Below, in pieces: positions 27,912-31,567 of a stretch of 64,000 bases of DNA. The stretch comes from Candidatus Hodarchaeota archaeon (lineage in GTDB: Archaea; Asgardarchaeota; Lokiarchaeia; Sigyniarchaeales; SOKP01): the NCBI GenBank assembly GCA_048887225.1, contig JBHLJY010000014.1, forward strand, positions 1 through 64,000, read 5' to 3'. A program made the translations under genes and the position numbers. Position 1 is the stretch's first letter; every line of letters begins with the position of its first letter. The notes beneath the pieces are model-generated. The model saw nothing but the letters and a program-made list of their open reading frames with translations, had not been told where the DNA came from and did no database searches.

Positions 27912-28046
27912 GCGCTCTTAGTATAGTGGTAAGTATACGCTAAATTTGCCATCAAGCAAATTTGGGTATAACAGGTTGCCAACCTAAGGCGAGAATTATC
28001 GTCTCGGCTGTAGAGGGTGACCCGGGTTCAATTCCCGGAGGGCGCA
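27912..28046 (+). tRNA. tRNA-Gly(GCC) with two non-canonical introns (27939-27971 at 27/28; 27986-28015 at 41/42)
   Basis: Removing both introns gives a 72-nt cloverleaf: acceptor GCGCTCT/AGGGCGC, anticodon arm CCAGG-TTGCCAA-CCTGG, T arm CCGGG-TTCAATT-CCCGG; both introns fold as BHB-like motifs. Confidence 0.92.
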
Positions 28047-29590: not shown

Positions 29591-29630
29591 TCTTTTTATT
29601 ACTCCTGTTTATATGATTAAAATATTATAG

Positions 29631-29733
29631 TGGGCGCGGCGAGATTTGAACTCGCGACCTTCCGCACGTCAAGCGGATGTCATACCGGGCTAGACTTCGC
29701 GCATGCACCTTTTTGGCAACATTACACGCGCCC
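29631..29733 (-). tRNA. tRNA-Val(GAC) with a 29-nt intron at position 9/10 (29696-29724)
   Basis: Spliced 74 nt: GGGCGCG TG|GTCTAGCCCGGTATGACA TCCGC TTGACGT GCGGA AGGTC GCGAG TTCAAAT CTCGC CGCGCCC A; BHB central helix CGCG/CGCG with bulges TG|T and AA|G. Confidence 0.9.
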
Positions 29734-29930
29734 TAAAAAACACGCCCATGTTATTTTGACATGAAACTTTTACTATTAAAGAATCATTCTCTAATTATTA
29801 AATTTATTCTAAGTTTAGACCACTTATTCATAAATTTAGTTAGGTTATTCAGTGAATAATTAAATTTTAATCGTAAAAAATCACTATTAATATTGAGATA
29901 TAACGAAAAATAAAGTGGTGTCTAAAAGTC

Positions 29931-30206
29931 ATGGAATCTGTAAGTACCAAACAAAAACATCGTAAAAAAAAAATTTTAATTGTAGCAAGCATAGCACTTT
30001 TAACTACTTTAGCTATAGCAATAGCGTTTATATTTTTAAACAATTATTATAACGTAGAAAACAAAGAATCAGATGAAGATGATGAAACAAACACAGGAAA
30101 TCCAGGAGATGAAGGATCTGGAGGTGGATGAGGATGCAGCGTTTTAATTCAAGATATACCGAAAATTGATTATTCATCAGCGCTCCGAAAAATTTTAATA
30201 ATCTGA
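29931..30206 (+). CDS. Small single-pass membrane protein; candidate selenoprotein (UGA 30129-30131 read as Sec gives 91 aa; 66 aa if it is a stop)
   Basis: KQKHRKKK + TM + acidic/Gly linker ...GSGGG-UGA-GCSVLIQDIPKIDYSSALRKILII-UGA; SECIS-like hairpin 15 nt after the second UGA. Confidence 0.6.
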
Positions 30207-30221
30207 ATAAAACCGAATTGA

Positions 30222-30257
30222 ATGATTCATGCGAGTAAAAGCGAGTTGCATGATGAC
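30222..30257 (+). promoter_or_regulatory. Putative SECIS element (eukaryote/Loki-type)
   Basis: AUGAU / helix UCAUGCGA:UUGCAUGA / AAAA 11 nt after AUGA / UGAC, giving the U.C, G.A, A.G, U.U quartet. Confidence 0.6.
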
Positions 30258-30346
30258 AGACCTATGTGAAGGTTTCGGGAAAGTAAATTGAAATATAAAT
30301 AAATATTAAAATAAGCTACAAAAAAATAAAAAATATTAATTTATAT

Positions 30347-31567
30347 TTATAATTTTTTCTCTCTTAGCGCTTTTATCATTGGAAGGTCATTTCCAGAAAG
30401 GATTTCAAGCATAGCCCCTCCAGCAGTTGAAATAAAGGAAACATCCTCAGCTTTTCCTGCCATTGCTGCGGCAGCCCCCATTTCTCCACCTCCAATTATA
30501 GTAAGTGCTCCCTTTTTCGTAGCATTTACCATTGCATCAATCATTTCATTTGTCGCTTTACGGAAAATTTCTTGCTCAAAAATTCCTGGTGGACCATTTG
30601 CTATTATTGTTTTACATTTTAGAATTACTTCATTGAACTTTTCAACCGTTTTTGGGCCTATATCTCCAGTTGTGGTATTATATAACCCGGCTTCTTCAAT
30701 AGTAATGATTTTTCTATTACCATTGTCATCAATGATTAAATCTTCTGGGAGAATAATTTTATCTTTATAGTTTTCATAAGCTGCTACAATCATATCTCTA
30801 TTAACTCCTAAATCCTTGGCAATTATTTTGCGATTTACCTCACCCATATTTTTCCCTAATGCTTCAAAAATCAAAATCGCGGTCAATCCAGAACATAAAG
30901 CATAATCTAATTTTCTGTTGTCAAAGTTATATTTCATCGCTTTAAATTTATCTATTGCTTTCGCCCCACCAATAAGCATTGCCATTGGTTTTTCAGGTTC
31001 TTCCATTATTTTTTTCAAATTTTCTAATTCCTTATCAGTAATAGGACCCGCTAACATTTTTGGCCATCCAACGATTGAAGCATGCGCTCGATGGGCAGCA
31101 CCAAATGCATCAACAATAGCGTAATCCACTAATGGGAATAAAGTTTGGATCATAGCAGTATTTTCTGCTTCGGAGAAATCTTTATACCCTTTCATTTCGT
31201 CTTCAAATTTTCGAACATTATTTAACACTAAGACTTCTCCAGGTTTGAGTTCTTTAATAGCATTAATCGCCTCCTCGCCATAAATATCTTTAACAAATTT
31301 TACTGGACGGCCAAGCTGTGTCTCAATTTCTTTCGCATGAATATCTAGATCAGTAAAATCTGGACTGCCTGGTCTAGATTGGTGTGCTAATATAATTACA
31401 GCACTTTCTCTGTAGATCTCGTTTAAAGCAGGAACTAATGCTCGAATTCTTGGTGAATCTCTTATTTTATTATTCTCTACATCAATGTTGGAATTGATGT
31501 CGACACGTATAAGTACTTTTTTTCCTTTTAAATCCACATCCTTGTAAGATGTATAATCTATCTTCAT
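30347..31567 (-). CDS. pgk: Phosphoglycerate kinase
   Basis: RVDIN, AHQSRPG, DAFGAAHRAHAS, IGGAK, NGPPG.FE and STAGGA. Confidence 0.96.
   Translation of the reverse strand: MKIDYTSYKDVDLKGKKVLIRVDINSNIDVENNKIRDSPRIRALVPALNEIYRESAVIILAHQSRPGSPDFTDLDIHAKEIETQLGRPVKFVKDIYGEEAINAIKELKPGEVLVLNNVRKFEDEMKGYKDFSEAENTAMIQTLFPLVDYAIVDAFGAAHRAHASIVGWPKMLAGPITDKELENLKKIMEEPEKPMAMLIGGAKAIDKFKAMKYNFDNRKLDYALCSGLTAILIFEALGKNMGEVNRKIIAKDLGVNRDMIVAAYENYKDKIILPEDLIIDDNGNRKIITIEEAGLYNTTTGDIGPKTVEKFNEVILKCKTIIANGPPGIFEQEIFRKATNEMIDAMVNATKKGALTIIGGGEMGAAAAMAGKAEDVSFISTAGGAMLEILSGNDLPMIKALREKKL

Follow-up and report, generated by a model that had tools for sequence, protein, structure and literature searches.

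A short reading frame interrupted by UGA

The DNA analysed here, referred to as the window, is a stretch of 64,000 nucleotides (nt) of contig C14 (GenBank JBHLJY010000014.1) from the genome of a Candidatus Hodarchaeota archaeon (3.27 Mb, 30% GC). On its plus strand, the window carries a short open reading frame (ORF) followed by a structured RNA element. A tRNA-Val gene (29630-29704, on the minus strand) precedes them, and a phosphoglycerate kinase gene (pgk, 30347-31567), which is convergent with the ORF, has its 3' end on the other side. The pgk is 79-95% identical to that of many Promethearchaeota/Promethearchaeia (Lokiarchaeia) metagenome-assembled genomes, which identifies the organism as a member of this group. 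The ORF begins with ATG 29931 and is closed after 66 codons by TGA 30129-30131, at the end of a segment that encodes GSGGG. The same frame continues past this TGA with GGA TGC and 22 further codons, up to a second TGA at 30204-30206, which yields a product of 91 residues. These features, described in an earlier reading of the same DNA (the original prediction), are all confirmed in the sequence. The evidence presented below indicates that positions 29931-30278 are very probably a genuine selenoprotein gene of an undescribed family, in which the first TGA would be decoded as selenocysteine (Sec) with the aid of a selenocysteine insertion sequence (SECIS) downstream of the stop codon. The distance between the UGA at 30129-30131 and the AUGA motif of the SECIS is 93 nt.

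It had also been claimed that standard annotation truncates the product, and the public record indeed holds exactly such a UGA-ended ORF. One member of the family is deposited as TKJ20844.1, a 61-residue 'hypothetical protein', and another truncated member is misnamed FliL. Annotation of this kind is what one would expect if the UGA were an ordinary stop codon, the product a 66-residue membrane peptide, and the downstream hairpin either an unrelated terminator or stabiliser, or the relic of a SECIS. A promoter and terminator scan found no intrinsic-terminator pattern at the locus, which counts against this reading, although the scan is of bacterial type and tells little here.

The SECIS is recognised by models of other selenoprotein genes

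We assessed the RNA element with two covariance models. Model R1 was derived from the SECIS of the new gene and its four orthologs only, whereas model R2 was derived from six SECIS of known genes in the same genome, namely those of HdrA, three VhuD genes, SelD and a Prx-like gene. When the 64-kb window was searched with R2 on both strands and with filters off, the sole significant match was at 30208-30287 (61.4 bits, E 2.3e-12); the second-best score in the window was 12.9 bits. The original prediction had named a covariance model of Loki-type SECIS as one way to check the hairpin, and the outcome of that check is thus a score of 61 bits. In the reverse direction, R1 found eight further matches with E < 1e-4 in the 3.27-Mb genome, six of them directly downstream of known genes with an in-frame TGA (three VhuD/MvhD genes, each preceded by HdrA, as well as HdrA, SelD and the Prx-like gene). 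The SECIS match at 30213-30278 is far beyond chance. That the hairpin scores as a bona fide SECIS under a model built from other genes is difficult to reconcile with an ordinary stop codon followed by an unrelated structure.

The association between element and gene holds throughout the family described below. R1 detected exactly one SECIS, downstream of the gene and on the same strand, at each of the 25 loci tested. Similarly, R2 detected exactly one at each of 20 family loci, with scores of 36.7-67.3 bits; these loci include two metagenomic contigs and the second of two paralogs in genome G067. A co-occurring SECIS, which had been proposed as something to look for in homologs, was found in every member.

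Rfam scans of the window, at both gathering and E-value thresholds, gave no match to a SECIS family. The SECIS type of Lokiarchaeota, or lokiSECIS, likewise escapes the models published for the SECIS of eukaryotes, archaea and bacteria (PMC4989117); the Rfam result is therefore expected.

Structure of the SECIS

The published definition of lokiSECIS comprises an AUGA, a 9-bp stem, an 11-nt A-rich apical loop that ends in AG, and then GA (PMC4989117); a general model of Asgard SECIS is also available (PMC11227280). The AUGA, stem, loop and GA are all present at 30213-30278. In the minimum free-energy (MFE) fold of 30205-30290 (-17.1 kcal/mol, z -2.1), 30227-30234 are paired with 30246-30253, a second hairpin occupies 30259-30274, and both are enclosed by the pairing of CCGA 30213-30216 with UCGG 30275-30278. 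The complete stem, 30226-30234/30246-30254, consists of eight standard pairs plus U30226.U30254. Within the kink-turn core, G30224.A30256 and A30225.G30255 would form sheared pairs. The variant AUGA_AA, found in the ortholog from genome G008, is known from Asgard SECIS (PMC11227280).

This structure agrees in most respects with what had been proposed. The AUGA does lie 15 nt past the stop, at 30222-30225, and the suggested lower helix of CCGAA with UUCGG is found paired in the MFE fold as CCGA and UCGG. The proposed helix of about 10 bp with one G.G mismatch is real as a helix, with nine pairs, but the G.G and a U-A that had been counted in it belong to the 11-nt loop. What had been overlooked is the hairpin at 30259-30274 (hairpin III), which is a conserved part of the SECIS. 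Because the lower helix encloses this extra hairpin, the SECIS is a three-way junction. The cited descriptions of lokiSECIS consist of a lower stem, a core, an upper stem and a loop only. In this genome, hairpin III is seen directly 3' of the GA core and inside the lower helix in every SECIS, i.e., in those of the known genes as well as that of the new gene (L022-L027).

The structure is also reflected in the variation among relatives. In an alignment of 25 SECIS sequences, which was itself fitted to the model, double changes occur at 14 of the 18 pairs, and the proportion of paired cells is 90%, as opposed to 32-52% when the partners are slid; none of 500 shuffles reached the observed value. 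For helix II, compensatory changes occur in six of the eight modelled pairs and 97% of the cells are paired.

The original prediction had raised another possibility for the hairpin region, namely that it belongs to a separate box C/D small RNA with AUGAUGA 30250-30256 as its box C. An RUGAUGA is indeed present, and weak Rfam alignments to C/D-box families were obtained. However, the heptamer is not conserved, being replaced in orthologs by AAGAGGAC, AAGAUAAC or AAGAUGAC; no CUGA box D occurs within the following 80 nt; and the Rfam snoRNA scores are at most 17 bits, against gathering scores of 45-90. Moreover, within the SECIS the bases of AUGAUGA belong to helix II (3' arm) and to the GA of the core. 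This proposal has therefore failed, and the probability that we would still assign to it is negligible.

Distribution of the family

Relatives were sought in 400 genomes of the phylum by six-frame searches that read through stop codons, using the protein as a query and then profiles. We found 28 SECIS-verified relatives in four to five genera, all of them in one Promethearchaeota family (f1); among the other genomes of the 400, there was no convincing homolog. The genera are denoted here g1, to which this genome belongs, g2, g5, g10 and g11. The gene is carried by five of ten g1 genomes, this one included, by at least 6 of 42 g2 genomes, by the single g5 genome and by 13 of 54 g11 genomes. The one carrier in g10 has a gene cut by the contig end, three residues past Sec. 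Genome G067 contains two paralogs. Two further candidates, G008:C603 and G249, were ruled out as members, as they have neither Sec nor SECIS. As judged by these searches, the family is lineage-specific, i.e., restricted to one family of Lokiarchaeia.

When 1.84 billion representative proteins were searched, the family was recovered in only 20 clusters, most of which end exactly at the Sec position. Several instead have W at that position (P0007, P0012, P0014, P0015, P0018, P0021, P0023 and P0024) and are thus deposited as full-length proteins; in the two that were examined, on short metagenomic (Logan) contigs at L170:238-615 and L171:334-594, the gene caller had read TGA as Trp.

All members are built alike: a basic N-terminus leads into one transmembrane (TM) helix, an acidic linker connects this helix to Sec, and a tail follows. 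Each gene has one SECIS, located on its own strand. The distance from UGA to AUGA ranges from 48 to 125 nt; the SECIS lies 3 nt past the stop in g2 and overlaps the end of the ORF in g11. The genomic context differs between genera: the neighbours are tRNA-Val and pgk in g1 and g5, an FGGY kinase and TrmB in g2, and Trm112-like, CcdA-like and GT4 genes in g11. Because the SECIS accompanies the ORF across these three neighbourhoods, it must be tied to the ORF and not to a neighbour, which again argues against an ordinary stop. Nor is the gene generally linked to pgk, since a SECIS is found at the same place in only 4 of 62 pgk loci.

The metagenome-assembled genome QM1B.325 is the closest relative (pgk 95% identical, flanks about 97%). 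Between tRNA-Val and pgk, it lacks about 400 nt through a clean deletion of exactly the ORF and the SECIS (L065:2705-3150, compared with 29905-30305 of the window). The whole cassette is a presence/absence polymorphism.

Conservation of the UGA and of the downstream frame

Among the 28 SECIS-verified members, 27 have TGA at the Sec position. The other, from the g11 genome G074, has TGT (Cys) in its place, within a C-N-C motif, and retains the SECIS; it is the sole such case found. The motif around Sec varies by genus, being GGG-U-x-C in g1 and g2 (11/11), GG-U-S-T in g5 and C-x(1-4)-U in g11. If the C-x-C pair of G074 is counted, a Cys is found near Sec in 26 of the 28 members. The codons that follow the UGA in g1 and g2 vary synonymously (GGA/GGT/GGG for Gly, TGC/TGT for Cys), and across members the middle codon of U-x-C is GGA, GGT, GGG, CTT, CCA or CCT.

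Downstream of the UGA, the 723 codons of 22 distinct tails contain no in-frame stop, compared with 74 and 94 stops in the other two frames. That is, the other frames are interrupted once every 8-10 codons or so, and the frames of the members remain open for 16-79 codons. Tail dN/dS between distant g1 genomes is 0.42-0.59, and in the group with a C-F-U motif the dN after the UGA is equal to or lower than that before it, in each case from small substitution counts. Conservation past the UGA and a TGA/TGY exchange had both been put forward in the original prediction as points to look for; the former is seen in the open tails and in the Cys at Sec+2 of all 11 g1 and g2 genes, and the latter in the TGT of the G074 homolog.

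These data bear directly on whether translation ends at the first UGA. The weak constraint on the tail, together with the public annotation, is consistent with an ordinary stop. However, an ordinary stop does not account for a frame that is open in every member, for a post-UGA Cys codon that is conserved with synonymous changes, or for the TGT that replaces TGA in one homolog. Thus, we consider it quite improbable that the UGA is an ordinary stop, and favour its decoding as Sec. The features of the locus are listed in Table 1.

Table 1. Coordinates of the gene and its SECIS in the window, with the observations that bear on each feature (G074 and G008 are genomes of relatives)
Feature	Position	Strand	Observations
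Selenoprotein gene, whole	29931..30206	+	91 codons, Sec at codon 67, plus terminal TGA; same reading at 28 homolog loci
Basic N-terminal segment, residues 1-14	29931..29972	+	Net charge +5; predicted cytoplasmic
Single TM helix/signal anchor, residues 15-36	29973..30038	+	Hydropathy; helix in AlphaFold2 (AF2) model; weak Pfam/NCBIfam matches
Acidic Gly-rich disordered linker, residues 37-66	30039..30128	+	Net charge -8; GGG at end
UGA read as Sec, residue 67	30129..30131	+	TGA kept in all g1, g2 and g5 homologs; TGT in G074
Gly-Cys codons completing U-G-C motif	30132..30137	+	Cys codon invariant in 11/11 U-x-C members
C-terminal tail, 22 residues, moderately hydrophobic/amphipathic	30138..30203	+	Frame open in all members; dN/dS 0.42-0.59 against distant g1 genomes
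True stop TGA	30204..30206	+	15 nt 5' of SECIS core; TAA, TAG or TGA in relatives
SECIS, Loki-type (eukaryote-like, type I), three-way junction	30213..30278	+	R2 61.4 bits, E 2.3e-12; covariation
Lower helix, 5' arm CCGA	30213..30216	+	Pairs with 30275-30278; double changes in all 4 pairs (25 sequences)
AUGA of kink-turn core	30222..30225	+	[A/G]UGA invariant in 25/25 aligned elements
Helix II, 5' arm, 9 nt	30226..30234	+	Pairs with 30246-30254; MFE fold, covariation
Apical loop, 11 nt, AAAA run, AG at end	30235..30245	+	Agrees with published lokiSECIS loop length and terminal A-G
Helix II, 3' arm	30246..30254	+	MFE fold, covariation
GA of kink-turn core	30255..30256	+	AA in G008 ortholog
Hairpin III, 5 bp and 6-nt loop	30259..30274	+	Between core and lower helix; MFE fold, covariation
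Lower helix, 3' arm UCGG	30275..30278	+	MFE fold, covariation

Selenocysteine machinery of the genome

The original prediction had pointed to the Sec machinery as a further check, and all of its components were found in the genome: tRNA-Sec, a PSTK-like gene, SepSecS, EFSec and a Sec-containing SelD. SepSecS scores 397 bits and EFSec/SelB 248.6 bits, the latter above its curated cut-off; the PSTK-like gene, with 155.7 bits, is below a strict equivalog cut-off. The SelD gene has one in-frame TGA. The tRNA-Sec gene, located at C4:44554-44702 (+), 219 nt upstream of SepSecS, was missed by genome scans with ARAGORN and with Rfam RF01852, and was found by similarity to the copy of a congener. Its anticodon is UCA, its acceptor and T stems have 9 and 4 bp, respectively, and GCCA is encoded. 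Two putative introns interrupt the gene; the first follows the 5' strand of the acceptor, and the second, of 30 nt, lies in the T loop. The congener's tRNA-Sec (G009:C30:102616-102699) has the first intron only. Four tRNA-Sec candidates returned by ARAGORN under relaxed settings were rejected as AT-rich false positives.

Three side observations concern RNA elements elsewhere. At C21:2347-2426 (+), R1 matches a SECIS with E 8.5e-5 after a 149-residue ORF that has two adjacent in-frame TGA codons (..HAD-U-U-ADN..) and lies beside an ArsM-like methyltransferase gene; this ORF may be another undescribed selenoprotein. At C3:218410-218496 (-), a weak SECIS-like match to R1 (28 bits, E 0.0085) directly follows a 325-residue ORF that ends in ..QAQDCD and has a TGA near its start. 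Lastly, positions 27912-28046 (+) of the window give an Rfam tRNA match of 135 nt and 38 bits that is absent from the ARAGORN output; this is probably an intron-containing tRNA gene.

Architecture and topology of the protein

The four segments of the protein (Table 1) recur throughout the family, with TM helices of 19-24 residues, linkers with a net charge of 0 to -13, and tails of 16-79 residues. An Asn marks the membrane boundary, at the start of the linker, in 12 of 13 aligned members. The N-terminus is net-positive (+1 to +7) in all 25 members analysed, and by the positive-inside rule this charge distribution predicts an N-in/C-out topology, with Sec exposed on the outer side of the membrane. 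The protein as a whole is fast-evolving.

An AF2 model based on 12 homologs shows a helix at residues 6-43 with a predicted local distance difference test (pLDDT) score of 81-93. The score drops below 50 for residues 54-80, around Sec, and averages 61 overall; beyond the TM helix the model has no fold, with a short helix of low confidence at 81-89. A thioredoxin fold is not seen in the AF2 model (the ectodomain has 27-100 residues in the family), nor is there a thioredoxin-like match in Pfam or NCBIfam. No Pfam or NCBIfam family matches above its cut-off, and the sub-threshold matches are confined to the signal-anchor region.

Possible function

In the mechanism that we propose, of which the decoding steps are well supported, the Loki-type SECIS in the 3' untranslated region (UTR) would recruit an archaeal/eukaryote-like EFSec carrying Sec-tRNASec. 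The ribosome would then insert Sec at codon 67 and read 24 residues further, so as to produce 91 residues instead of 66. The basic N-terminus and TM helix would act as a signal anchor, followed by a 30-residue acidic, disordered tether that ends in GGG-U-G-C, and by a short amphipathic tail. The Sec/Cys pair, carried by this flexible arm on the outer side of the membrane, could cycle via a reversible selenenylsulfide. The arm may serve as a selenol-based relay for thiol-disulfide or peroxide reduction, or may trap soft metals or electrophiles.

Such a mode of action would resemble that of the disordered arms of SelS and SelK, or of the GCUG tail of thioredoxin reductase, and not that of a thioredoxin-fold enzyme. 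SelS has a Cys-Sec selenenylsulfide in its disordered arm. In the GCUG arm of animal thioredoxin reductase, electrons are shuttled by a Cys/Sec pair, flexible and flanked by Gly, which forms a selenenylsulfide.

A redox role at the cell surface is suggested by the presence of a Cys near Sec in nearly all members, by the swapping of Sec and Cys positions, by the replacement of Sec by Cys in one homolog, and by the CcdA-like neighbour in g11. This neighbour, which is convergent with the gene and occurs in five g11 genomes, is a multi-pass membrane protein of 221-242 residues that resembles CcdA/DsbD_TM and has two P-C motifs. The genes are on the minus strand of their loci, at L042:1939-2625, L047:1892-2617, L142:1875-2537 and L139:1872-2540; the fifth, at locus L143 of genome G100, was seen in the ORF list only. 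This neighbour provides weak context for a redox role. Altogether, we put forward the surface Sec/Cys arm, as a relay or as a trap for metals or electrophiles, as a tentative assignment.

Several observations weigh against the interpretation developed so far. The gene is dispensable, having been deleted in the closest relative and giving no match in five of the ten g1 genomes. In close pairs the tail evolves with dN/dS of 0.4-1.0, and in one pair 2.5, from six substitutions, so that constraint is weak; and the tail cannot be aligned between subfamilies. The U-x-C and C-x-U subfamilies are linked by a profile-profile match that is limited to the anchor region (96.6%, E 5e-10); that is, the link depends on a TM segment, which may be prone to composition bias. 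The g5 ortholog has no partner Cys next to Sec, and in g11 the Cys-Sec spacing varies from one to four residues; thus a fixed redox geometry is not conserved. As for the CcdA-like neighbour, it is convergent with the gene, and only one of the four tested exceeds the Pfam cut-off (28 bits against 27.1). No match to CcdA/DsbD_TM was found in the present genome, either with the Pfam hidden Markov model or by tblastn with the g11 proteins, and therefore the CcdA link cannot be extended to it.

Some of the same facts could be accommodated if Sec were inserted but took no part in redox catalysis. The protein might then bind or carry soft metals and metalloids (Hg, Cu, As, Se) at the cell surface, or it might be a sensor or regulatory micro-protein whose length reports the supply of selenium. 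A variable Cys spacing, the lack of a Cys next to Sec in g5, the disorder of the acidic linker, and a protein that is small, dispensable and fast-evolving are all in line with this idea, as is the occurrence in the same genome of a SECIS-bearing orphan ORF beside arsM, a link between selenium and metalloids. However, the neighbourhoods differ between genera and contain no conserved metal-handling or regulatory gene; no sequence feature distinguishes such a role from a redox one; and a sensor would have no need of the conserved Cys. We regard a non-catalytic role as only slightly less likely than the redox or trapping arm, which we retain as our tentative assignment.

A broader proposal, which we likewise offer tentatively, is that the family is the first of extracytoplasmic, membrane-tethered selenoproteins in archaea. 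The protein would be an Asgard-specific, disordered Sec/Cys surface arm, operating in some genomes with a CcdA-like electron conduit, and would have originated recently and de novo in one family of Lokiarchaeia by the capture of an existing lokiSECIS.

Implications for archaeal selenoproteomes

The present case implies that some members of archaeal selenoproteomes are lineage-specific and escape surveys based on homology. A search that starts from the SECIS reveals orphan selenoproteins that are missed by surveys and by gene callers, which either truncate them at UGA or read TGA as Trp. Since R1 also matches at further orphan ORFs, the archaeal selenoproteome is likely to grow once Asgard genomes are surveyed with the SECIS as the starting point. 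The family would add a new architectural class to archaeal selenoproteins, namely one that is small, membrane-anchored, disordered and probably outward-facing. In addition, its natural UGA-SECIS cassette is compact (about 350 nt, with 93 nt from the UGA to the core) and could serve to test how the eukaryote-like SECIS of Asgard archaea functions without SBP2. The swap between U-x-C and C-x-U, together with the presence/absence polymorphism, makes the family a good case for studying the birth and loss of selenoprotein genes.

Comparison with known selenoproteins

The closest parallel is with the genes from which lokiSECIS were described (PrxL, VhuU, HdrA-VhuD and SPS), which use the same recoding device, i.e., an in-frame UGA and a 3'UTR element near the stop (PMC4989117, PMC11227280). 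The kinship is also apparent from the covariance models, which cross-recognise the elements of known and new genes in both directions. The proteins differ, in that the new one is small, membrane-anchored and disordered, whereas those encoded by the lokiSECIS genes are soluble redox enzymes. The UGA-to-SECIS distance in the new family is short (48-125 nt); in g11, the SECIS and the ORF end overlap. Asgard surveys have reported seven selenoprotein families, mainly by homology to known families or to Cys homologues (PMC4989117, PMC11227280, PMC9723677), and a review of May 2026 lists 11 archaeal families, all of them soluble enzymes of redox or energy metabolism (PMC13188914). At the level of sequence, the new protein is without homology to any of these 11.

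In architecture, the nearest analogy is with eukaryotic SELENOK and SELENOS (SelK and SelS), in which one TM helix close to the N-terminus is combined with a disordered region, rich in Gly, that carries Sec (PMC10650576). The description 'SelK-like' in the original prediction is apt as far as this architecture is concerned, that is, a single TM helix near the N-terminus and a disordered, Gly-rich arm bearing Sec. It does not extend to sequence, to the position of Sec or to the predicted topology. The Pfam models SelK_SelG and Selenoprotein_S are not among the matches at E <= 1 for 13 members. In SELENOK and SELENOS, Sec is second or third from the C-terminus, and these type III proteins have a cytosolic Sec arm (PMC10650576); in the new family, by contrast, Sec is 16-79 residues from the end, and the charge distribution predicts that its arm is outside. 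Because the family is confined to a single family of Lokiarchaeia, a direct ancestor-descendant link with SELENOK and SELENOS is unlikely, and an evolutionary connection of any kind to eukaryotic membrane selenoproteins of this type seems to us highly improbable.

With respect to the motif, bacteria provide several selenoproteins with U-x-C, C-x-U or UGC, namely the thioredoxin-like Sec.1 and Sec.2 proteins, a UGC reductase of the TlpA family, a DUF1573 UGC protein and the SO_0444 U-x-C transporter (PMC13188914). In that review's table of prokaryotic families, such motifs occur only in bacterial proteins that are folded. These proteins have in common with the new family the single residue between Sec and Cys, and several of them are redox or metal proteins located in the membrane or outside the cytoplasm. 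Their motifs, however, are located in folded domains, such as the thioredoxin fold or transporters, and none of their models matches the new family. In the latter, a disordered tether carries the motif, and genera differ in the order and spacing of Sec and Cys.

The analogy with thioredoxin reductase, finally, would lie in the flexible, Gly-flanked Cys/Sec pair. Thioredoxin reductase is, by contrast, a large flavoenzyme in which Cys and Sec are adjacent and at the extreme C-terminus, and it has no membrane anchor.

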